This document shows, in pieces, positions 1,947 through 58,910 of a stretch of 64,000 bases of DNA. The DNA lies in NCBI GenBank assembly GCA_964572255.1, contig CAZNEE010000002.1, positions 121,129 to 185,128 of the forward strand, read 5' to 3'. This stretch comes from an uncultured Planctomycetia bacterium. GTDB lineage: Bacteria; Omnitrophota; Gorgyraeia; Tantalellales; Tantalellaceae. Numbering within the stretch: position 1 is the stretch's first letter; every line of letters starts with the position of its first letter. Position numbers and translations under genes: made by a program. The notes beneath the pieces are model-generated. The model was given only the letters and a program-made list of their open reading frames with translations. It ran no database searches and was not told the DNA's origin.

Positions 1947-3610
1947 TATTGCTTCTTGAATATCGCTCCGGTTGCGGCAGAAGTTACTTGCTGGGCATAT
2001 CTATAAAGATATCCCTCTTTTATCTTGTAGTCAGGATGCTGCCACTTTTCGAGGCGTTTTTTTATTTCATCTTCGTCAACTAAAAGTTCCAGTTTTTTAT
2101 TAGGTATATCTATCCGGATCTTGTCCCCTTCTTTAACGATAGCTATGGGACCGCCTTCCTGAGCTTCAGGAGAGATGTGTCCGATCGCTGCACCGCGTGT
2201 GCCGCCCGAAAATCTCCCGTCAGTGATAAGAGCAACGTCTTTATCCAGACCTTCACCCACAATTGCTGAAGTAGGGCTTAACATCTCACGCATTCCCGGT
2301 CCGCCTTTAGGCCCTTCATAACGAACGACTACAACATCGCCCTTTTTTATCTTTTTCCCCAGAATAGCTTTCATGGCATCTTCTTCCGAATCGAACACCC
2401 TTGCGGGACCTTCATGAACGAGCATGCTTTCATCGACCGCGGCTTTTTTGACCACGGCGCCGTCCGGACAAAGATTACCGAAAAGTATGCTTAACCCTCC
2501 ATCCGGTGAATACGGAGAATCTATCGGATGAATAACTTCCGGATCCAGGTTCTTTACATTCTTTATGTTGTCTTTTACTTTCTCTCCGGTAACGGTCATA
2601 GCATCAGTATTTATCAGATTTTTCTTGCTTAGTTCCAATATCACGGCTGGAATACCGCCAGCTGCATCAAGATCCTCTATATGATAAGTCCCCGCCGGTG
2701 ATATGCGGCACAGGTTCGGCGTACGTTCACTTACCTTGTTAAAAAGCTCAAGATCGAGTTTTATGCCGGCCTCGTTGGCTATCGCGGGGAGATGGAGAAC
2801 AGTATTTGTGGAACTCCCGAGCGCCATTTCAACAGCTACCGCGTTCTCAAAAGCCTTTTCGGTGGCTATATCCCTGGGTTTTATGTCTTTTTTAACAAGT
2901 TCCACTATTCTCTTGCCCGCTTCCACGGCAAGAAACCGTCTTTTTTCGGAAACCGCCGGGTAAGTCCCGTTGCCGGGCAGGCCCAGGCCCAGGGCTTCGC
3001 TTAGGCAGTTCATGGAATTGGCGGTAAACATTCCCGCGCATGAACCGCACCCGGGGCAAGCTGTATTTTCCAGTTCTTTCAGTTCTTCCTCGGTTATTTT
3101 TCCGGATGAATGCGCACCGACGCCTTCAAAAACAGTAATAAGGTCGATCGCCTTGCCGTCTTTTTTACCCGCGAGCATGGGGCCGCCGCTAAAGAAAATA
3201 GCGGGGATATTGAGCCTCAGCATCGCCATCATCATGCCGGGAACGATCTTGTCGCAGCTGGCCATACATAGAAGGCCGTCAAACGCGTAAGCCATACCCA
3301 TGGATTCAACGGAATCGGCGACTATCTCCCTCGAAGGAAGAGAATATTTCATGCCTTTATGCCCCATGGCTATACCGTCGCATATCCCTATCGTATTGAA
3401 TTCCATGGGAGTGCCGCCCGCCTCCCTGATGCCTTCTTTAACGGCTTCAACCAGGCCTCTGAGATGAATATGTCCGGGGATGACTTCATTAAAAGAATTC
3501 GCGATCCCTACTATGGGACGCGACAGATCCTCATCCGTGTAACCCATCGCCTTAAAAAGTGAGCGATGAGGAGCCCTTTCAATGCCTTTTTTCATTTGGT
3601 CTGAACGCAT
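1946..3610 (-). CDS. ilvD: dihydroxy-acid dehydratase
   Basis: 554 aa; [11 protein letters not shown] and [16 protein letters not shown] motifs typical of IlvD/EDD family. Confidence 0.9.
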
Positions 3611-5315: not shown

Positions 5316-8300
5316 TTAAGCCGCTGCTCTGACTCCTAATTCCCTGTAAAATTCTTTCTTGAGGAGTTCTCTATCAATGGGCTCTGCTTTTGGCATGAAA
5401 GTAAATACCCTCGGGCTATCTTCATCAAACTCCAGCCCTATCTCGGGATAACTCTTCTTCAGTTCACTGATCAAGACTTCGAACGGTAAAACTTTATTAA
5501 AGGCAAGCTCTAAAGCCATGTTAATCATATCAACGATCCTTATGTAATTTTCTTCATTCCCATTCTCCGGCCGCTTATTGATCTGTTCAGGATCGATCCT
5601 CACCAAAAGCGCCCTGTCTCCCGTTTTAGGATCATGTAAAGGCTTGAACGCTTCTTCTTTTACTATATCCTCATGCCCTAAAACGATGATGTTCGAAAAG
5701 TTGACTTTTTTATTATCTGCTTCTTTCAGCAGCTGTCCGGCGAAATCATCCCCCTCTTTCCTGACAATATGGATATTTTTGATCCCGAGGCTTCCGGCGA
5801 TCCTGTATATCTCGCTTAAAAGCGGTTGTATTATATCGGCCTGTTCTTTTGGTATCCAGCTGGTCTCCAGCCCGATCATAATATTTTGTTCGTCATTTTT
5901 GACCCCCCCGCCAAGATCCCCATTTTTAACTTTATCGGCATAAAACCTGAGCATATCCATGAAAAGCATTGCCATCTCCTGAGCCCTGGTAAATTTGCCT
6001 TCTGTCCGCTTCCCTGCGGAAGGTTTATGTCTGATAAAATATAACGCGCTGTTATACACATGCTTGCTGTCCTTATAACTCGTTTCGACATCCATGATAT
6101 CGCCAGTGATCCCGCTCAATATTCTATATTTTCCGGCCGATCTGAGTATCTCGGCCACGGCGTCAATATCGCCCAGCTTTTCATCACGGGTTATGCACGG
6201 ATCATTCCATATCATCGCTATTCCATCATCATGGAGCATGACCGGCAATGCGCGGGCAAAGCGACTTAATGCGTCTCCCCCGATATCGCCGTCCCAATAG
6301 CTTGCAAGTTTTTTGTGCCAGGCGGGCACACTCTCTCCCGGCGAATCGATCAAGTTAGGCATGTTCCAGATGATCCTGTCGAAAACGCCGTCAAAAACAG
6401 GTTCTCCGTTTTCTGAAATTATATTATCATGGGTCACGGTCTCGATATCAAACCCGGCTATCTTAGCGGTCAGGCGAGTGTTTGCCGCTGCAAGCGGATT
6501 TATATCAACGGCATAGATCTTTCTGCCTGTTTTAAGATACGCTATCCAGCTGTCTATGCCCGAACCGGAACCCGCGATCAAGACCCTATGCCCCTTATCC
6601 AATCCTATATCATTCCACATAGCAGGGATTATCTTGGCATCAGAAACCGTCATTTCCGCCGGCGTATATACAGTGGGAAATACCGGGATAATGATCTTCT
6701 TTTTGCCTTCTTCTTCTTTAAAAATTCTTTCAAAATCCTGGTCGGATAATGTTTCCGGGGTAAAGGTCTGTATATCTATTTTTCCTGTCAGGGTATCAAC
6801 CCCGATATAATTATAGATATCTGTTTCCTGGCGGTTGAAATTTGAAATAAGCTGGCCTTGTCTTCTTCTCTCAGCGGCAAAAGAAAGCAGCAGCTTCTTG
6901 TCCGCATTCCTTCTTGTTATGAAATCTTTCCATTTCTGCGCGGCCTCAGGATCGGTCATATCGGGAAAAACAAAATTGTAAGGCGTAAGATCCAGATAAT
7001 AGATTTCATCCTGTGCGGGAGCGCCTTTGACAACAGGAAATATCCCTATTAAAAGACCCTGTTCATTATGTAAAAACTCGAATTCCCTTGTTTTCTCTCC
7101 GGCAAGTTCTCTATAAAGCACATCTAATCCGCGCGGAGTTCCGTACATCATAGATGTTTCGGGGATCCTTATCGTGCGAATGATGGTATTACTCCACCCT
7201 TGTCTTTCGGAAATTATACCGGCCTTATTGATCTCCAATGCCTGCAGGAACTCCCACGAAGCCATGTCTTTATAAAAAGCTGCGTCAGCCTCCTGCGCCT
7301 TGACCAATTTTGTTCCCGTTGCAACTGCTTCTTGTTTCTTGCCTGGAATGAAACGAACTTCAGATCTTATCTTTCCCTCGATATTGTCCAGTTCATCCAA
7401 AACATAATCACCAAAGATTTTTACTGCCTTTCCTTTTATGGGAACATCCGATACAACAAATGTACTGTCATCAAAAACTTTTATGAACTTATGAAAACGT
7501 TCTTTATTGTCAGTATCTTCGATATATACAGGAATTTTTTCCGCAGAATAAGCCTCTCCGACAACGGCTTCGAACGGTTTAAATCCCCTGTTTTTCCTTC
7601 TGAAATCAGGCCCTATATACTCATCTCCTTTCAGTTCAAAACCCAGATCTTCCACAACACTCACCAGGAAAGGATTCTGAACAAAAATGCCAAATTCTAT
7701 GTAGTAAGAACCGTTGTAAATAGCCCCCTGTTTCAGTCCGGACAACAGAACTTCCAGGAATGCCCGGGCGTACCCTCTATTCCTGTAAAGATTATCAACA
7801 AAAATACAATCGATTTCCGTGTCATTAAATCTGATATAACCAACAGGATCCCCATCCCCGCCGTAAAAATCCAGACTGCCATGATTCTCGGAAGACATGG
7901 GGAAATATTCGAAGAACAGTTTTTCATTATTGGGTGTAATAACATGCCCTGAGTAGCCTTCTTCTTCGAAAATGCTATTGCAGACTTCAGTTATTTCAAT
8001 AACCTCAGGATATTCCTCGGCAAAAGTCGCTGCTGTCAACCTTCTCTCTTTTAATGACCTCAAATAAGGCCCGACCATGATAGAACCAGTGTGATCGCCT
8101 TTCATCCAATAAGCGCCATCAATATAAGTAACAGGGGTATTATTCTCTAAAATAGCGACCCAATTATGCGTATAAGGCTTATCAAAGCCCCAATAATATC
8201 CTCCGACAACTTCCACTCGGCTGGGCGAATCCCCTCCCAATGGTAATCCATATTTCCTGGAAATGATCTCCGCCAGAGCTAAGGCGGAAATATAGCATTC

Positions 8301-11300
8301 TTTTACCGGGTATCCTTTTTTCACTTTTTGCCGCATAAGTTCCGTAAAACGATTTTCAATAGCTTTGAGATGCAAATACAAATTATCATCCGATGGCAGC
8401 ACTGAATGCGGATCTTGAACCTTGCCGTCACCGTAACCCGGAGGTCCGGGTTCGGATTTTAATTCGTTCTCTCCATCATACACCCTTATGCCCGAAGCCC
8501 AATCACTCTTATCGTACGGCCAAACTGTTACTTTCTTTCCTCCATGCCTAACTCCGATATAATATGGTTGCCCCATTAACGTTATGCTTCCATCTTTTCC
8601 GATCTTTCTTTCTGCAGGTATTGAGGGTTTTTTACGTACCACCTTTTTTCTCGGCTTTTTGACCATCTCATGCTTTTTACGTTTCTTTGTTCCTTTATTA
8701 TGGGAATTATAGCTCTCGATCAATCTTTCTACGGAATATTCTCCTGCAACTTCTTCCTCACTTTTTTCTTCCCCCTTCATCCTGTACCCAAGATGCGCGA
8801 CTTCATGGTTAAGCCATCTGGCATAAGAAACTAGATCATTTCTTCTGATCATTCCCAGAAATTCAAGAACTTTGCGCGGGATCAGCAGATTGCAGGAACG
8901 CGCAGCGCCATTTTCATCTCTCCAGGACCCGGGGTGAGTGATAAGTCTGAACGAACCTTTTTCCGGAAAAGAGATATTGCTTGTTTCTGCAAATTTATAA
9001 AGAACATCATAGAAATATTTCTCGGGGGGGCTATGTATATGGATCTCTTCTTCTATGCCCCTGCTTCTCATCTCGCTTAAGATATCTTGCCCTAATCCTT
9101 TTTCTGTTGAGATCTTATGATCTCTTTCAAATACATCCCAATAAACCCCCCATGTTTTATTGATAACGGCGTGCTGCTGGGCATTTAACACATACTGAAC
9201 CCATCTGCCGTCTTTTTTTACTAAAGCAATCGCGGGCGGATCATCGGAAGGAATGCCTTTTTTCTTATCCGATAACCTTGGCGATTCAGGCATTTTCCGT
9301 CCCCGGGAATAATTAAAACCTCTTCCATATCTGTCTCCGCTTCTTCTTTCTCCATCAATGTAAAACGTCAATTTCGGGCTGACTTCCTTGACTTTCACTG
9401 AGACAGCTTCACCTTCACTAAATCTTTTGCCTCCGCAAAGACTAAGGGGCATGAAACCTTTAACTTCTCCCTCATAAACAAGTTCATATCCCGCCAATGA
9501 ACCATCGCTCCTGCGGCGAGACTCTCTATTTACGAACACCTTAACTTCCTCTCCCGATCTCTCAGCTGCCTCCAATTCATACAATAGATCTCTTTTTCTT
9601 TCATTCGCCATCATCTGTCTTCGGCGAATAGAGAACCTGGGTTCGGGAATTATCCCCCTCCATTTACAATCGACGAGAACAACGTTCACTTTTCTGCCAA
9701 GCATATCATCAGGATTAGTTCCATAGGGGCATTCTCTCGAGCTAATGCGTCCTTTTATCTCCTTGAATTCAACCACGTAGTAGTCAAATTTGCCTCTATA
9801 ACTGTAATGATCTTCCACGATCTTGACCCTAAAAACTTTTTCAGGATCATCTTCCCCCTGCTTTATCTCTCTGATACCTAAATGATAATTAAAGACGGAT
9901 TTTGCTTTTTCGTCCAACTTGTCCAAAATAGCCTTTGATATTTTTTTATATTCATCTTCTTCTTTGCTGACCAAATAAGAAAACTCTGCGGGTTTTTCTA
10001 TTCTGCGCCTTGCATCAACAAACCTGTTCAAGTCCGCTTCTGCAATACAGTTTTCCGCTTTTCTTTTTGCTTTTGGCAAACCATGTTTTTTTAAATATAA
10101 AAAAGCCTCCAGGCTTGACAGCCTGCCTAAGCCGTCTATTTTCCCTTCAGCAGCCAACTTCATTCTTTCTTCGATCCTTTCATCTAAAAGGACTATTATC
10201 CTAATCTTTTCCCGGAAAAAAGCTTCCCTCTCTCCGAGCTTTAGGGCTTTCCATGCCCTATCGGAAAGTTTGAACTTATCACGTCTCCTGCTGTCGCTTT
10301 TCAGTAATTTACGTTCTTCCAAAAGGTCAATGACGTCTATAAGTTTGATCCGCTCATCATGAATCTTTTTCCTTACATGATCTCTCATTTCCCCTAAGAC
10401 ACGATCGGCTTCTTTCTTTGCATCTATTTCCGGCAATAATTCCGGGCGTTCATCCAAAACTTTATCGAGAAACACCGTAAAATGATCCGCCAGATCATCA
10501 TCACCCATGCTCCTAAGCTCTCCCAGGCGCCTGCGCATTTCATCAACCGCATAAGATGCTCTTTCAGGTTTCTCTTCACGTATAATCTCAAGGATATCAT
10601 TGAGCTCATCTCTCGTTCTTTCTCCCGAAGAATGAGTATCTTCACTTCCTTTATCCTTATCCGCGGGCTGGTCTGTGTGGGGCGTACCCGGGCCGAAACC
10701 GTCGGTCTTATCTTTATTGTACAAAACCTTAATGCTGAAATTTGGACTGCCCCCCTTTAAGGGGCCTGTCCTTCCGCTCAACATTATTTCTTTCACATCG
10801 GCGTTAAACTTTTCAGGAGCATCTCTCGGTATCCGCGGCTTGCCTCTTATTTCTATTAATACGTCTTCAACCGACTGAGCCACAACGCCGATTACCTTAT
10901 TCCCGATCTTAACGACCAGTTTTTCGTCTATTGTAATAACGGTGCCTTCCCTTAACTCTTTGACAAGCTCCAGTTCCTCTGTCCATTCATTACGTTCTAT
11001 CTTATATTTATTCTTTGTTCCTTCAACATGCTTTAAACGGAGATAAGCCAGCGGAAATACTGTTTCTATGTCTCTGATCTCGATCTCGCCCATCACATCA
11101 TAACTCCAGAAGCCTTCACCTGTCTTAGCGTCATTAATATCCTCGAAGCTTTGCCACTCCCGGCTTTTTTCGTAATTAAGAAGATCTCCGGAATAGAAAG
11201 TGACCTTTATTTCGTCAGCGAAATATTTTTTGAACACGTGTAGGTTATATAGCCAGGGTGTATCTATATAAATTTCATTGATCCCGTTTGTGACAGCAAA

Positions 11301-25881: not shown

Positions 25882-25904
25882 AGAAAAAAATATATCATGC
25901 TCAT

Positions 25905-26260
25905 CAAAGCAGATCTATAAGCCGGGTTCTGTAGGCGGAATTCACCGCCCGGCGATCATCCATCTGGGGCTTTCATTACTGAAAACCTCGTGCGGCCTAC
26001 CCGGAAGTTGTGACGAAGCTAGCCGCTTCGTTATCAGTCAATCCGCATGATTTTTCGGATTTTCCTGATTCCTCCCCTATTTGGCCTTGCTCCGCGTAGA
26101 GATTGCCGCGTTTCACTTCCGCATGCAAAAGCACGCTTACTCGTCTCTGTGGCTCTGATCCTCACCTTTTGGTGGACGGGCATTACCCGCTACGCTGCTA
26201 TATGGAGCCCGGACTTTCCTCCCCCTGCAAAAAGCAAAGAGCGATCACCCGATCTGCTTC
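25905..26260 (-). ncRNA. rnpB: RNase P RNA, bacterial type A
   Basis: The minus strand carries GGGGAGGAAAGUCCGGGCUCC (P4 5' strand), CGGAGCAAGGCCAAAUAGGGG and ACAGAACCCGGCUUAU (P4 3' strand). The P1 strands GAAGCAGAUC / GAUCUGCUU pair at the two ends. Confidence 0.85.
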
Positions 26261-27465: not shown

Positions 27466-27542
27466 TGGTGGGCGCAGGGGGACTCGAACCTCCGACCTCA
27501 TGCATGTGAGGCATGCGCTCTAACCAGCTGAGCTATGCGCCC
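27466..27542 (-). tRNA. tRNA-Val (anticodon CAC)
   Basis: Cloverleaf GGGCGCA-TAGCTCAGCTGGTTAGAGC-G-CATGC-CUCACAU-GCATG-...-TTCGAGT-...-TGCGCCC-A-CCA; 77 nt with CCA encoded. Confidence 0.8.
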
Positions 27543-27584: not shown

Positions 27585-27661
27585 TGGTGGGGGCACATGG
27601 ACTCGAACCATGAACCTACTGATTATGAGTCAGTTGCTCTAACCACTTGAGCTATGCCCCC
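27585..27661 (-). tRNA. tRNA-Met (anticodon CAT; elongator type, tRNA-Ile2 not excluded)
   Basis: GGGGGCA acceptor, anticodon loop CUCAUAA. The anticodon stem ACTGA/TCAGT lacks the three G-C pairs of initiator tRNA. Confidence 0.75.
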
Positions 27662-27698: not shown

Positions 27699-27787
27699 TT
27701 ATATTTGCAAGTAATAAAAAATAAGAAAAAATTTGACTTCTTTAGAAAATATGGTCCATTTTAAGAGAATATAAAGTTGTTCTTTCT

Positions 27788-27946
27788 AGCAGATTTTAAT
27801 CGTAAACTGTTCGCAAGAGCAGGACACAAAGCCAAAGGGGCTAAACAATGCTTTCAGCCAGCCGGCTGCCGATTGACACATCGTTAAAGTGTTGGCATAA
27901 GTATTGATCAGACCCAACCTTTCGATGGTTGGGTTTTTTGTTTTTT
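27788..27946 (+). promoter_or_regulatory. c-di-GMP-I (GEMM) riboswitch-like leader with intrinsic terminator, upstream of the first PEP-CTERM gene
   Basis: AAACUGUUC-GCAA-GAGCAGGACACAAAGCC...GGGGCUAAACAAUGC closely matches the Vibrio Vc2 aptamer (AAACCAUUC-GAAA-GAGUGGGACGCAAAGCC...GGCCUAAACCAUUGC). Followed by hairpin CCCAACC-UUUCGAU-GGUUGGG plus a U-tract. Confidence 0.7.
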
Positions 27947-28056
27947 ATAAGTAAAAAGTTTTTAAAAGGAGGTGATGAAAAATATTTCTTGCAAGTTTTT
28001 TTGCAGTTATATATAGGTAAGTTTTAAAAATCTAAGAAGAAAGTGAGGTGATAACG

Positions 28057-28659
28057 ATGAAGAAAATGTTGATCTTGATCTGTTTTGTATTAGCTATAGC
28101 GTTTATGGTAATACCATCGAAAGTTGAAGCTAGAACCATCGAAGATGATGAAGATATAGGCCCACCTCCTGGAACAGTACTCGAATATTGTGAGTGGTGG
28201 CCAAGTGAAACGGGTGACCCGGATTTTATAGATCTGAATTCTGGTGACAATTATTATGACCCTGAAACTGAAACTATCGTTTCAATGACAATCTCTGTTT
28301 GGGGAAGATCTAGCGATCAGCATGATGGTCAAGACAGCACAATTGAAGTATATATAGGCAGTACTGCTACTCCGGGGAGTCATTTGCAGCACGAGACCAT
28401 AACTCATGGCGATGAACTGGAGACAAAAACTATCACATTAAATGCTGCTGCTCTGGCCGATATCTCTGGAGACGGTAAAATAAACCTTAGATGGCACGGT
28501 CTTTCCGGAGGCGCAGGTGATCCTGACGGAGACACATTTGCTTTGGCTGGCTACCCTTCCTACGAAGCACATACCCCCGAACCGGCAACAATTATATCAC
28601 TACTTCTGGGCGGATTGGGAATGGCAGTAAAGAGGAAAAAGTTGTTCTTTAAGCAATAA
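28057..28659 (+). CDS. secreted PEP-CTERM sorting-signal protein
   Basis: GAGGTG sits 6 nt upstream of ATG at 28057. Signal peptide MKKMLILICFVLAIAFMVIPSKVEA, acidic mature region, and C-terminal TPEPATIISLLLGGLGMAVKRKK (PEP motif, hydrophobic helix, basic tail). Confidence 0.75.
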   Translation: MKKMLILICFVLAIAFMVIPSKVEARTIEDDEDIGPPPGTVLEYCEWWPSETGDPDFIDLNSGDNYYDPETETIVSMTISVWGRSSDQHDGQDSTIEVYIGSTATPGSHLQHETITHGDELETKTITLNAAALADISGDGKINLRWHGLSGGAGDPDGDTFALAGYPSYEAHTPEPATIISLLLGGLGMAVKRKKLFFKQ

Positions 28660-28760: not shown

Positions 28761-28874
28761 TTACTTTTTCTTTCTCTTTTTCTTTGCAGCTTTTTTCTTT
28801 TTCTTTACAACTTTTTTCTTTTTCTTTGCTACTTTTTTCTTTGCAGCTTTTTTCTTTTTCTTCTTTACTACCAT
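28761..28874 (-). CDS. 37-aa polylysine micro-protein (MVVKKKKKKAAKKKVAKKKKKVVKKKKKAAKKKRKKK)
   Basis: Minus-strand ORF with strong RBS GAGGAGGGG 5 nt upstream of ATG. Built from a ~21-nt tandem nucleotide repeat and followed by the terminator at 28708-28741. Too short for the ORF track. Confidence 0.45.
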   Translation of the reverse strand: MVVKKKKKKAAKKKVAKKKKKVVKKKKKAAKKKRKKK

Positions 28875-46027: not shown

Positions 46028-46103
46028 TGGTGGAGCTGAGGGGGATCGAACCCCTGACCTTCTGATTGCGAACCAGACGCTCTTCCAGCTGAGCTACAGC
46101 CCC
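46028..46103 (-). tRNA. tRNA-Ala (anticodon CGC)
   Basis: GGGGCUG acceptor with the G3:U70 identity pair; anticodon loop UUCGCAA; CCA encoded. Confidence 0.85.
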
Positions 46104-52268: not shown

Positions 52269-52862
52269 TTAACTTGTAAACTTTTTTACTGCCGTTCCTA
52301 ATAAAGCAAGGCCTAACATCACCATGCTTGCGGGTTCCGGAGATCCATAAATACCTCGTGCGGCACCTCCCTCGTCACTAATTGCTGCCGCTCCGACCCC
52401 GAAATAATAGGGCGAACTGCCCGCTTCCGGTACGACAAATGTATCGAACCCTTCTTGTTTTCCGACCAAGCTCACAACATCAGAATCAACCAATGTTAAT
52501 GTGCTATCCATCAATACAAAAACAACTGCATCGCCGAACTGTTCGTTATTCGAGTACCATTTGTAATTGATTACATCCCCTACTGAAAAAGAGGTAGGTG
52601 CAACATTGAACACCCCTTCATTAACAGTGGTAATTTTAAATATCGCCATATGTTCCGTATGATCAGCTTCATCTGAATCTTCAGGTGACTTTTCAACAGA
52701 TACACTTGGTCCGTTAGGTGCCCAATTTGTCATGTCGCGCATTTCTAAAAGAATATTACTCAATCCGAGCTCCCACATATTATATGTCGCAGCTTCAGCA
52801 CAAATTGTTAACGCAAATAATAGTGCAATAAACAATATAAAAGCTAAACAACATTTCTTCAT
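52269..52862 (-). CDS. secreted PEP-CTERM sorting-signal protein, paralog 2
   Basis: Same RBS/start context as the 28057 gene (GAGGTG 6 nt upstream of ATG). Signal peptide MKKCCLAFILFIALLFALTICAEA. C-terminal SPEPASMVMLGLALLGTAVKK. Confidence 0.75.
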   Translation of the reverse strand: MKKCCLAFILFIALLFALTICAEAATYNMWELGLSNILLEMRDMTNWAPNGPSVSVEKSPEDSDEADHTEHMAIFKITTVNEGVFNVAPTSFSVGDVINYKWYSNNEQFGDAVVFVLMDSTLTLVDSDVVSLVGKQEGFDTFVVPEAGSSPYYFGVGAAAISDEGGAARGIYGSPEPASMVMLGLALLGTAVKKFTS

Positions 52863-52892
52863 CATTCTCACCTCACTTTCTTTTTAGATTTT

Positions 52893-53046
52893 AAAAAACA
52901 AAAACCCAACCATCGAAAGGTTGGGTTACTGATTTTCTCCAACACTTTAACGATGTGTTAATCGGCAGCCGGCTGGCTAATTTCTTTCCTAGCCCCTTTG
53001 GCTTTGTTGCCCCGTTCTTCCGAACGGTTTACGATTAAAATCTGTC
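52893..53046 (-). promoter_or_regulatory. c-di-GMP-I (GEMM) riboswitch-like leader with intrinsic terminator, copy 2
   Basis: Minus strand: AAACCGUUC-GGAA-GAACGGGGCAACAAAGCC...GGGGCUA..., then ACCCAACCUUUCGAUGGUUGGGUUUUUGUUUUUU. The P2 stem shows compensatory changes relative to copy 1. Confidence 0.7.
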
Positions 53047-57174: not shown

Positions 57175-58533
57175 TTATTCCTCTATTTTGCTGTTCAGAT
57201 TGAATCTTCCTTTACGGTAGGCCAGAAGAAAAGCGCTCACGACTATGGGGTCAAATTGCGTGCCCGCGGCATCCTTTATTATCTGGACAGCGACCTCGGA
57301 CATGCTCCTCTGCCTGTACGGCCTGTCGCTGGTTATCGCGTCAAACGTATCCGCCACGGCTATTATCCGGGCTATGAACGGTATATCTTCACTCTTCAGC
57401 CCGTCCGGATATCCGGTCCCGTCATACCTTTCATGATGCGCGCGTATCTCATCAGCTATGTTCCCGAGCTCCCTTATGGAATAAAGGATAGAAGAGCCCG
57501 TTGAAGGATGCTCCTTGACCCTCTCGTATTCTTCTTTTGTCAGCTGACCGTTCTTGTTCAGGATGCTGTCGGGAACGCCGACCTTGCCTACATCATGAAG
57601 AAGAGCCGATAAATGCAGTGTTTCTATGAAATTCTTATATTCGTTAGCCTCAGGGAGGTCTTTCAGTTCATTTGCCAGTACCAGCGAGTACTGGGTAACC
57701 CTCTCAGTATGTCCGTGCGTGTAAGGATCCCTTGAATCTATCGCGGCGGCAAGAGAGATCGAGGTCCTGATGAACACGTCATGTTCCTTCTCATAAAGGT
57801 TGTGTATCTCGTATATCTTGTCCTCGAGGTCCTGAATGAGCTGGGTGTTGGCAAGCGCCATGGCGGCGTCATTGGCCAGGGTCGTGAAAAAGCCTATCTC
57901 CTGCCTCGAATAAGTTTCTCCCGAAAGTTTTCTGCCGAGAAGGAATATTCCGCTCAGATCTTTCCCGCAATATACAGGCACGCATATATTCGCCTTCAAC
58001 AGCTCCATCTGCCTGAGCGCCCTTTTTACAAGCTCGGCGAGCGCGGGGCTCTTTACGATATGCTCGTTCTTGTCAAAAGAATCGATAAGTTTATCATAAT
58101 CAACAGCCTGGGTAAAAGATACCTTATAGTTAATGCTTTCGTTAAAAAAACGTATCAAGGGGTCCTTCAACGTAAGTTTTATAAAACCGACGGGTATCTT
58201 GATGCCTTCCGCGCCGACACTGTCAATAAGGGTAAAAGTATCTCCCGATTTGTTCCTTAAAAGCATTGCCGTATGAGTTACCTGGACCTGCTCGTCAATG
58301 CTCTTAGTGATCATCCTGATGAGCTTTTCGGGTTTTTTAATGCGCAGCATCCCGCGCGAAACGTTCTCGAGCACGACCTGGTAGTCACGTTCGGGCTTCG
58401 GCCTCTGGAGGACCTCATGGCTTTCTATAGCCGGGGGGACATCCTCCGAATGCCTGATCTTCTCTGCTATCCAGTCCTGCAATTTAAGCCAGTTAGTATT
58501 CTCTTCGGGCATTTTCTCTTCCGATCGCTTCAA
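57175..58533 (-). CDS. HD-GYP domain c-di-GMP phosphodiesterase with N-terminal GAF-like domain
   Basis: HGHTERV...LHDVGK...HHERYDGTGYP (HD and GYP signatures). Confidence 0.85.
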   Translation of the reverse strand: MKRSEEKMPEENTNWLKLQDWIAEKIRHSEDVPPAIESHEVLQRPKPERDYQVVLENVSRGMLRIKKPEKLIRMITKSIDEQVQVTHTAMLLRNKSGDTFTLIDSVGAEGIKIPVGFIKLTLKDPLIRFFNESINYKVSFTQAVDYDKLIDSFDKNEHIVKSPALAELVKRALRQMELLKANICVPVYCGKDLSGIFLLGRKLSGETYSRQEIGFFTTLANDAAMALANTQLIQDLEDKIYEIHNLYEKEHDVFIRTSISLAAAIDSRDPYTHGHTERVTQYSLVLANELKDLPEANEYKNFIETLHLSALLHDVGKVGVPDSILNKNGQLTKEEYERVKEHPSTGSSILYSIRELGNIADEIRAHHERYDGTGYPDGLKSEDIPFIARIIAVADTFDAITSDRPYRQRSMSEVAVQIIKDAAGTQFDPIVVSAFLLAYRKGRFNLNSKIEE

Positions 58534-58910
58534 GTGTTACTATTGATCCTGATATTATCCGCCGCGCTCAGAACTGTTCTTTCAAGATGGTCGAGTAAAA
58601 GCGGTTTTGTAATGTATTCTATAGCGCCTAATTTTTTGGTTTCTTCTATCTTGCCGGCATCTCTAACGCCGCTTACAATTATGACACTGCAATTATTCCC
58701 AGTTTTCCTTATCTCTTTCAATGTCTCGATGCCGTTCATGATCGGCATATTTATATCCAAAATAACTATTTCGGGATTCTCGGCCTCGACCAGCCGTATC
58801 GCCTCTTTCCCGTTATGGGCCATGAAGGTCTGAAAATCCCTTTCCCTGAAGAAAGTTTTCAGGAAATCACATATATCAACTTCGTCATCGACGATCAATA
58901 TCTTTATCAT
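58530..58910 (-). CDS. response regulator receiver domain protein
   Basis: MIKILIVDDEV...ILDINMPIMNG...VSGVRD. Start set at the ATG that overlaps the upstream stop (ATGA). Confidence 0.75.
   Translation of the reverse strand: MIKILIVDDEVDICDFLKTFFRERDFQTFMAHNGKEAIRLVEAENPEIVILDINMPIMNGIETLKEIRKTGNNCSVIIVSGVRDAGKIEETKKLGAIEYITKPLLLDHLERTVLSAADNIRINSNT

Follow-up and report, generated by a model that had tools for sequence, protein, structure and literature searches.

The window analysed here, 64,000 nucleotides (nt) of contig CAZNEE010000002.1 from an uncultured bacterium, contains two related leaders, each standing before a gene for a secreted protein with a PEP-CTERM sorting signal: copy A on the forward (+) strand, whose aptamer and terminator lie at 27788-27946 and form the element under study, and copy B on the reverse (-) strand. 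The element is a real GEMM-I riboswitch with a terminator upstream of a PEP-CTERM gene and is ordinary in kind; that a GEMM-I aptamer and a terminator control this gene appears very probable to us. We further propose, with a probability of about one half, that each leader would work as a transcription-attenuating riboswitch of a single-gene unit encoding a secreted PEP-CTERM protein, as an OFF switch of the type of Cd1 from Clostridioides difficile, most likely responding to cyclic di-GMP (c-di-GMP). The aptamers carry a cytosine at the nucleotide known to set ligand specificity in this family.

Aptamer fold and the pocket nucleotide at position 20

Searching the window with Infernal returned for copy A a full-length match to the c-di-GMP-I family RF01051 at 27791-27873 (+) (58.7 bits, model positions 1-87 of 87), with an E-value of 6.6e-9 over the 64-kb window, both strands and 4227 families, and of 4.7e-11 for the local region, which bore out the GEMM-I aptamer claimed in a preliminary description of this DNA. 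The coordinates 27788-27946 given there were accurate, and the plus-strand letters quoted there, GUAAACUGUUC-GCAA-GAGCAGGACACAAAGCCAAAGGGGCUAAACAAUGC, are present as given at 27802-27851. The same Rfam scan yielded a second match at 52961-53043 (-) (48.3 bits, model positions 1-87 of 87); both aptamers are members of RF01051, being full-length and scoring above its curated gathering score of 35 bits. Neither belongs to the pocket-variant families RF03167 (c-di-GMP-I-GGC) and RF03168 (c-di-GMP-I-UAU), as both retain the equivalents of A47 and C92, and the scores of these clan-mates lay below RF01051 and were filtered out. By structure, the element is thus filed in the GEMM-I family; relative to the ligand-defined classes of that family, it is a variant.

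In the Rfam alignment, P2 of copy A consists of 27802-27803/27826-27827 and a hairpin (27807-27812/27817-27822) capped by the GNRA loop GCAA, and P3 spans 27830-27841/27857-27867. The joining region J2/3 reads AAA (27828-27830) and provides the equivalents of A47, A48 and A49 of the Vibrio cholerae aptamer Vc2, while J3/1 reads CC (27869-27870), aligning GCCGAU with the consensus gCCgaa. Besides, the blocks GAC-AC-AAA-GCC (27823-27833), CC-AG-CC (27858-27863) and GCCGA (27868-27872) align with the consensus, and the conserved junction nucleotides A47, A48, A49, C44, the bulged G83 equivalent and C92 are all kept. C27869 is the C92 equivalent and C27870 the C93 equivalent, the latter unpaired in the predicted P1 register. 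The conserved junction positions and their roles are known from Vc2, where A47 intercalates between both ligand bases and C92 is Watson-Crick paired to one guanine of the ligand (PMC3764141).

Aligned with each other, the two leaders are about 84% identical over about 160 nt. Common to both are the 5' flank AGAUUUUAAUCGUAAAC and the block GCCGAUURACACAUCGUUAAAGUGUUGG, a terminator whose stem and loop are identical, and a box preceding the Shine-Dalgarno (SD) sequence. From copy A to copy B, P2 pair 2-11 changes from U-A to C-G, compensatory on both sides, and pair 4-9 from U.G to U-A; the P2 tetraloop is GNRA in both (GCAA in A, GGAA in B), and the distal P3 sequence is replaced with its pairing kept. 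The pairing of P2 and P3 therefore survives sequence change between the copies, in a small test of two sequences only. Homologue searches with proteins A and B gave no orthologous leaders from which conservation of the pocket nucleotide or covariation of the platform could be read. The locus A leader is identical in six independent samples and the locus B leader in two.

In Vc2, P2 has the pairs G21-C46 and C22-G45 at its base, P1 is topped by G14-C93, and the joining regions J1/2, J2/3 and J3/1 hold G20, A47-A49 and C92, respectively (PMC3764141). Of the two ligand guanines, one is read by G20 at the guanine's Hoogsteen edge and the other is Watson-Crick paired with C92, and an A at position 20 leads to binding of 3',3'-cGAMP (cyclic GMP-AMP) or to bispecific binding (PMC6140456, PMC5888326); the G20A variant still binds c-di-GMP via a protonated A20 (PMC6140456). 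We anchored the Vc2 numbering on PMC3764141 and on the RF03167 consensus. Inspection of the G20 equivalent, which the preliminary description had suggested as a check, found C in both copies (C27801 and C53033), neither G, as in the c-di-GMP-selective class, nor A, as in the GEMM-Ib cGAMP class. Both cytosines align to the consensus G at model position 11 (posterior '*' for C27801), in J1/2 directly 5' of a G-U/A-C pair that is the equivalent of Vc2 G21-C46/C22-G45. With A47 (A27828) and C92 (C27869) retained, the pocket triplet 20/47/92 is C/A/C, which, as aligned, differs from G/A/C (c-di-GMP), A/A/C (cGAMP) and the GGC and UAU pockets of Rfam. The RF03167 consensus (...AAAG-GC-AAAC...GACGC-G-AA...) confirms that the Rfam names of pocket variants follow positions 20/47/92. 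The 'UAU' of RF03168 we take to mean U20 and U92, by analogy with GGC and as Weinberg et al. reportedly described in 2017. A full-text literature search for a natural C20 or for G20C found no characterisation, the main mutational and bioinformatic papers lying outside the searchable text.

Position 20 was read in two surveys. The first covered one genome per GTDB species with a pattern taken from the aptamer 3' half only, leaving position 20 unconstrained, after which the aptamers were located by Rfam; among 29 aptamers from 20 genomes, the position was G in 24, A in four and C in a single aptamer of a Papillibacter metagenome-assembled genome (MAG; contig L008, AAUC-GC-AAAC). The second, a metagenome scan, required AUC-GY-AAAC and thus pre-selected C20, so that its abundance is no frequency; it gave about 20 genuine aptamers, each of which passed RF01051 or RF03167 with 64-78 bits. 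Tandem partners included, C20 aptamers form at least 13 distinct clusters at 80% identity, and they occur with U19, C19 or A19. As far as these sequences tell, C20 is a genuine, recurrent pocket variant. Two of the aptamers or arrays (L038 and L052) were considered as true GGC variants, their best match being RF03167, and were set aside, as A47 is present. We also considered that U19-C20 might exist only to pair with G94-A95, and rejected this as a general rule because G94-A95 is the family consensus whatever base stands at position 20, because position 94, mostly G in C20 aptamers, is A in three of them, because several have the canonical CG...CG-AA-G P1 with C20 left unpaired in J1/2, and because C19 and A19 occur.

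Several leaders with C20 are mixed tandem arrays, with the bases G-C-G at position 20 in L030 (714-1146), G and C in L052 (221-482) and L036 (213-473), and A and C in L032 (1625-1882), L008 (3466-3723) and L055 (1099-1277); such arrays could be two-input gates or graded-affinity sensors. Downstream of C20 aptamers lies typical GEMM cargo: genes for secreted proteins that bear a sortase-like TLQTC motif, for an SLH-domain protein, for a response regulator and for further exported proteins. In the sediment C20 tandems L028, L031, L034, L040, L042 and L059, open reading frames (ORFs) lie about 140-150 nt 3' of the second aptamer and encode secreted proteins of about 230 amino acids (aa), the TLQTC motif being near their C terminus. 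A Clostridiaceae MAG contig (L006) carries a cyclic di-AMP (c-di-AMP, ydaO) riboswitch at 3435-3568 together with a GEMM-I aptamer.

We regard c-di-GMP as the probable ligand of the window aptamers because A47 and C92 are intact and because HD-GYP and PilZ proteins are encoded on the contig. The HD-GYP-type phosphodiesterase gene (57178-58512, -; PF13487 HD_5 138.9 bits, motif HHERYDGTGYP) lies about 4 kb from copy B, with an adjoining receiver-domain gene (58533-58910) and a second one nearby, and the contig also carries three small stand-alone PilZ genes, clustered within 3 kb immediately beyond the left end of the window (L073 15767-18486). No GGDEF gene was found in the roughly 84 kb examined, that is, the window and its flanks. 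By analogy with the G20A variant, a protonated C20 could read the guanine Hoogsteen edge, presenting the same two donors as the protonated A20, and a neutral C20 could do likewise for adenine. The preliminary description spoke of cyclic-dinucleotide control, a fair wording; with C as the pocket base, the sequence alone does not decide among c-di-GMP, cGAMP and another ligand.

Among the alternatives, the one that survives best, although we consider it unlikely, is that C/A/C aptamers of the same anatomy have an altered specificity and sense 3',3'-cGAMP, are bispecific, or sense some other cyclic or linear dinucleotide; a neutral C would then present N3 and N4-H to the adenine Hoogsteen edge, much as A20 does in GEMM-Ib. 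Position 20 is a known switch, with G for c-di-GMP and A for cGAMP or bispecific sensing (PMC6140456). C stands there in both window copies, is rare in the unbiased sample (1/29), and recurs in the clusters described above whichever of three bases precedes it; it often shares a leader with G20 or A20 aptamers, which would be sensible if the inputs differ, and C/A/C is none of the pockets named in Rfam. In addition, some HD-GYP enzymes are known to degrade cGAMP. On the other hand, no cGAMP synthase (Hypr-GGDEF, DncV or another CD-NTase) was seen in the approximately 84 kb examined, and the nearby PilZ receptors point to c-di-GMP. Smith et al. reportedly observed in 2010 that all Vc2 point mutants of G20 keep sub-micromolar c-di-GMP binding, in which case C20 need not change the ligand. 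Moreover, aptamers for one and the same ligand commonly occur in tandem, and the effect of mixed arrays may be confined to tuning affinity. The pattern behind the C20 set itself required C20.

A wider proposal, which we put forward as doubtful, is that C20 GEMM-I aptamers constitute an unrecognised natural specificity or affinity class, comparable to the split between G20 and A20, with both window leaders as members. If this were true, the class would sense cGAMP or another dinucleotide, or else c-di-GMP via a protonated C with a distinct, possibly pH-dependent set point; tandem arrays of C20 with G20 or A20 would act as two-input gates, and the shifted P1 of the window leaders, described below, would pair the J1/2 strand in the ligand-free state.

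Terminator, anti-terminator and switch direction

Terminator scanning and folding predict an intrinsic terminator downstream of the copy A aptamer (27910-27946, +), a G+C-rich hairpin followed by a U tract, with the stem AGACCCAACC/GGUUGGGUUU (27910-27919/27927-27936; 10 pairs, five of them G-C) and an 8-base-pair (bp) core of -13.6 kcal/mol. The preliminary description was right about the hairpin and its UUUCGAU loop; the tail is U6-G-U6, reaching 27946, rather than a plain U7. The terminator scan alone was not above chance in this AT-rich region (3 found versus 3.1 expected). However, the hairpin with its loop is found again at an equal offset from the copy B aptamer, where the platform (52893-52955, -) comprises anti-terminator strands at 52955-52939 and 52924-52911, the terminator at 52926-52904 and a U tract to about 52893. 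Sub-threshold Rfam matches (rnk_pseudo, RsaF, L10_leader and others) covered the terminator hairpin only and were discarded.

Constrained and unconstrained folds give a segmented P1, whose 5' strand (27787-27801, +) contains UAGC (27787-27790), GAU (27792-27794) and UUAAUC (27796-27801) and whose 3' strand (27871-27886, +) contains GAUUGA (27871-27876), AUC (27880-27882) and GUUA (27883-27886), paired as UAGC/GUUA, GAU/AUC and UUAAUC/GAUUGA. It is AU-rich and worth only about -2.9 kcal/mol alone. Copy B has UGAC for UAGC, both of which pair with GUUA, and the 3' strand is invariant between the copies save for G27875, which is A in copy B; either base pairs with U27797. As a duplex, P1 reaches -5.9 kcal/mol, compared with -3.0 ± 1.9 (A) and -2.4 ± 1.6 (B) for shuffled sequences, a value attained by 167 and 71 of 2000 shuffles, respectively. 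The proximal segment UUAAUC/GAUUGA stands one register off the canonical P1 top. That top (G14-C93/C13-G94, followed by an unpaired J1/2 of about 6 nt) is found in neither copy, the bases 6-7 nt 5' of G21 being U/U or A/U and non-complementary to C27870 and G27871. P1 is outside the RF01051 model and variable in the family; the mismatch lowers confidence in a canonical pocket without excluding family membership.

The terminator is tied to P1 by a predicted anti-terminator. Its 5' strand, CAUCG-UU-AAAG-U-GUUGG (27879-27895, +), forms 14 canonical pairs with CCAAC-CUUU-CGAUG (27914-27927) around two small bulges, so that 27914-27927, that is, the 5' arm of the terminator, its entire loop and the first G of its 3' arm, doubles as the anti-terminator 3' strand. 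The helix has -11.8 kcal/mol in copy A and -12.8 kcal/mol in copy B, near the -13.6 kcal/mol of the terminator core. When the upstream segment was shuffled, 2000 times per copy, duplex energies of -13.7 (A) and -14.5 kcal/mol (B) compared with -6.7 ± 2.4 and -6.1 ± 2.2 for the shuffles, of which only 15 and six reached the native values. The anti-terminator overlaps the mid and distal P1 at 27879-27886. All paired strands of the platform are invariant between the copies, and its sole diverged stretch, 27896-27913 (+; 18 nt in A and 14 nt in B, of unrelated sequence), coincides exactly with the loop of the predicted anti-terminator hairpin. The anti-terminator thus accounts for this divergence and also for the identity of the terminator loop in both copies, as its 3' strand includes that loop.

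We folded growing transcripts of both copies. At decision lengths, where the transcript already includes the anti-terminator 3' strand but still lacks the terminator 3' arm, the unconstrained minimum free energy structure has all 14 anti-terminator pairs in either copy. Enforcing the full P1 at this stage cuts the anti-terminator to eight pairs at a cost of 2.7-3.9 kcal/mol, far less than the gain from binding a nanomolar ligand. As soon as the transcript contains the terminator 3' arm, the terminator is always the thermodynamic winner, and therefore the decision must be kinetic.

From these elements, a course of events may be sketched. Transcription would start some 5-25 nt upstream of P1, the aptamer would fold, and about 55 nt of further transcription would leave time for ligand binding. 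In the ligand-free RNA, the AU-rich P1 would be too weak to hold: the emerging 27914-27927 would begin by pairing with the free AAG-U-GUUGG and go on to displace the mid and distal P1, and the completed 14-bp anti-terminator would occupy the 5' arm and loop of the terminator, so that RNA polymerase would read through into the gene. In the ligand-bound RNA, P1 would be locked and 27879-27886 unavailable, leaving only an 8-bp anti-terminator of about -5 kcal/mol, which the terminator (about -14 kcal/mol) would displace, and transcription would end at the U tract. We somewhat favour OFF over ON because aptamer and terminator do not overlap and are able to coexist, with the anti-terminator predicted to compete with both, as in the layout of Cd1. 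Transcription attenuation, as proposed in the preliminary description, is in any case the reading that the anatomy appears to support best, with the terminator apart from the SD and the anti-terminator tying it to the P1 strand.

Several points weigh against this OFF model. Every step beyond the anatomy derives from nearest-neighbour energies, and the switch decision appears to be kinetic, which lies beyond an energy computation at full length. The extended P1 exceeds chance by a modest margin only, as 167 and 71 of 2000 shuffles reach its energy. In the fold model, its proximal 6 bp are compatible with the full anti-terminator, and therefore an OFF switch would work only if the ligand stabilised the mid and distal segments of P1, at a distance of 8-15 nt from the junction. 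Besides, the shifted P1 would pair the entire J1/2 including C20, which a canonical pocket needs unpaired; it is possible that the UUAAUC/GAUUGA pairing represents the ligand-free state, and that the bound state has an open J1/2 together with the mid and distal P1. As aligned, position 20 is C and not the c-di-GMP-type nucleotide, and the apparent invariance of the platform comes from a comparison of two near-identical copies without orthologues. Finally, one would not usually expect c-di-GMP to repress a matrix-type protein.

The opposite direction, an ON switch, we hold to be quite unlikely. There, a ligand-free hairpin H', the J3/1-P1 strand CCGAUUGAC folded back on GUUA...GUUGG, would hide GUUGG so that the terminator forms; upon ligand binding, P1 would hold that strand and the freed AAG-U-GUUGG would pair with CCAAC-CUU and block the terminator, with the result that c-di-GMP would induce the PEP-CTERM protein. 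With the aptamer enforced, both copies indeed fold the 8-bp AAG-U-GUUGG/CCAAC-CUU helix during the decision interval, H' can form in both, and the change of G27875 to A leaves H' paired. Induction of matrix- or exopolysaccharide-associated proteins by c-di-GMP is moreover a common pattern, and most transcripts with c-di-GMP riboswitches in Methylophaga are higher in biofilm (PMC12530212). The energies speak otherwise: H' has only -4.2 (A) and -4.3 kcal/mol (B) against the -11.8 and -12.8 kcal/mol of the full anti-terminator, by which H' would be displaced in RNA without ligand, and the 8-bp helix (-4.8 and -5.8 kcal/mol) is a poor match for the -13.6 kcal/mol terminator. An ON switch would also leave the invariance of the terminator loop and of CAUCG unexplained, and the coexistence of aptamer and terminator is the layout of Cd1, an OFF switch, not that of the pilM ON switch. 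Hence, we rank the ON model below the OFF model with its 14-bp anti-terminator.

Control of translation was also considered and rejected, as the SD lies 20 nt (B) to about 100 nt (A) past the U tract and outside any conserved pairing. Pairings confined to one copy were discounted: the P3 loop with the spacer 27900-27907 and GCCAGC with GUUGGC in copy A, both absent from copy B, and GAUUUU with GAAAAUC in copy B, absent from copy A.

Around this platform, a tentative sigma-70-like promoter of copy A (27733-27761, +; TTGACT, 16 nt, TCCATT) was read from the sequence and the copy alignment; the promoter scan did not list it. The corresponding candidate of copy B is TTGCAT, 16 nt, TATACT with an upstream TG, and the conserved TATAAA at 27770-27775 is an alternative -10 element. 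Between terminator and pre-SD box, a spacer found in copy A only (27947-28025, +) contains a mini-ORF of 13 codons (27977-28018, +; MKNISCKFFCSYI) with AGGAGG about 2 nt from its ATG, which is probably not translated. The conserved pre-SD box with the SD, AAAAAUCUAAGAAGAAAGUGAGGUGAUAACG (28026-28056, +), is common to copy B and to an allele of locus B termed P0007. In general form, the A-rich box AAAAAUCUAA(R)AA(G)AAAGUGAGGUGA, SD included, precedes the PEP-CTERM genes of copy A (28026-28056), copy B (52886-52866, -) and the P0007 allele (L072 45-72), and a variable insert parts it from the terminator in A and P0007.

Regulated genes and genomic context

The gene downstream of copy A (28057-28659, +) encodes a secreted protein of 200 aa with an N-terminal signal-like segment and the C-terminal sequence TPEPATIISLLLGGLGMAVKRKK, and its TIGR02595 score of 24.3 bits (cut-off 16) bears out the PEP-CTERM gene described previously. 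Gene B (52269-52865, -) encodes a secreted protein of 198 aa ending in SPEPASMVMLGLALLGTAVKKFTS; it scores 14.3 bits with TIGR02595, below the cut-off, and is recognised as an exosortase substrate by PF07589 (20.8 bits versus a cut-off of 20.7). Both regulated genes look monocistronic. In BLASTP, the alignment of the two proteins is confined to the sorting tail. Protein A is an orphan that matched nothing but itself among 5.8 billion protein clusters, and in the protein-cluster search protein B matched itself and one further sequence in the tail only. A six-frame motif scan of the 64 kb found just two PEP-CTERM-like tails, both with the leader (2/2), and the leader stands before no other ORF of the window. 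The leader, rather than the cargo, is the conserved unit. No exosortase of the EpsH/XrtA family was found in the window or its flanks of about 20 kb.

That the aptamer has decayed or become ligand-independent, so that a duplicated cassette would carry the terminator as a constitutive or protein-controlled attenuator and C20 with the shifted P1 would reflect lost binding, is very improbable: the scores of 58.7 and 48.3 bits do lie below the other aptamers collected (64-84 bits), the canonical top pairs of P1 are absent with J1/2 fully complementary to the 3' strand, and no orthologous leaders showing long-term conservation were found, yet both scores are well above the gathering score, both copies keep A18, A47-A49, C44, the G83 equivalent and C92 despite divergence of P2, the GNRA loop and distal P3, and leaders about 84% identical before cargo proteins diverged beyond recognition argue for purifying selection on the leader.

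In a co-occurring strain, locus B holds a different gene, P0007 (213 aa; L071/L072 1-720), whose protein body is unrelated. The 24 aa of its PEP-CTERM tail match those of gene B exactly, and from the tail onward the identity of the DNA is 98.9%. The locus looks like a case of cassette-style cargo replacement between a conserved leader/SD box and a conserved tail. The P0007 contig ends 73 nt upstream of the gene, which places the leader outside the readable sequence; the repeated leader is perhaps the cause. Just 3' of gene A lies a T-rich tandem repeat (28771-28857; 21-nt unit, 3.4 copies, with an overlapping 15-nt unit), and the gene spacing on this side differs by 57 nt between the samples L061 and L062.

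The two copies lie 25 kb apart among housekeeping genes. Gene A sits between a convergent gene and the divergent genes for tRNA-Val(CAC) (27466-27542, -) and tRNA-Met(CAT) (27585-27661, -), and gene B is followed by a TPR-rich gene of 816 aa and by ExbB/ExbD. The window also carries a class A RNase P RNA (25902-26260, -; 216.6 bits), a further tRNA (46031-46103, -) and a giant ORF of about 3760 aa annotated with pentapeptide repeats (5316-16619, -). The window lies on a 499-kb contig (ENA ERZ27256770 k141_130128), and the locus recurs in several metagenome samples of ENA and JGI (JGI 3300018080, 3300017971 and 3300017963).

Relation to known riboswitches

The fold, the family, terminating c-di-GMP-I riboswitches such as Cd1 and c-di-GMP riboswitches before PEP-CTERM genes (PMC12530212) are already known; the C/A/C pocket falls outside the named classes, as does the shifted P1 of the window RNAs. 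The leaders are thus two further members of a well-known riboswitch family and a further example, here in an uncultured bacterium, of PEP-CTERM genes wired singly to cyclic-dinucleotide signalling. Such wiring is known from Methylophaga nitratireducenticrescens GP59, in which several c-di-GMP-type riboswitches each precede a PEP-CTERM/VPLPA-CTERM gene (PMC12530212). The genes of that strain, for which pocket nucleotides are not reported, lie within 18 kb beside exopolysaccharide genes; in the window, 25 kb separate the two copies and no exosortase is in view.

In layout, the window leaders resemble Cd1, the c-di-GMP-I OFF switch of C. difficile, in which aptamer and terminator coexist, the anti-terminator shares strands with P1 and the terminator, and the ligand favours termination (PMC9262584). 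The same separation of aptamer and terminator with a competing anti-terminator is predicted here; Cd1, however, precedes flagellar genes, whereas the cargo in the window is a secreted PEP-CTERM protein, the pocket holds C20 and the direction is a prediction. In the pilM cGAMP ON switch, by contrast, aptamer and terminator are mutually exclusive (PMC9262584). The window leaders may thus be viewed as a compact Cd1-type platform of about 160 nt, in which a weak, segmented P1 would relay ligand binding to the anti-terminator.

With Vc2, the V. cholerae aptamer of the RF01051 type, the window aptamers share the three-helix junction, the GNRA-capped P2, the GAC-RC-AAA-GCC strand, the CUAA of P3, and A47 and C92. 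They differ from it in having C for G20, G-U/A-C for G-C/G-C at the base of P2, a P1 without the G14-C93/C13-G94 top whose only good register is shifted and absorbs J1/2, and an intrinsic terminator. Like RF03167 and RF03168, they are GEMM-I aptamers whose 20/47/92 triplet departs from G/A/C, but theirs is C/A/C and their best score is with RF01051. A parallel for the pocket is found in the GEMM-Ib riboswitches of Geobacter for 3',3'-cGAMP (Gs1761 and pilM), which have the same fold and family and likewise a single change at the G20 equivalent (PMC6140456); the base is A in those RNAs and C in the window, and pilM is an ON switch. A single change from G to A at position 20 created the cGAMP riboswitch class, and hence the specificity nucleotide is the part of these leaders worth attention: C20 beside G20 or A20 aptamers in one leader offers a natural experiment on whether the signals that they sense differ.

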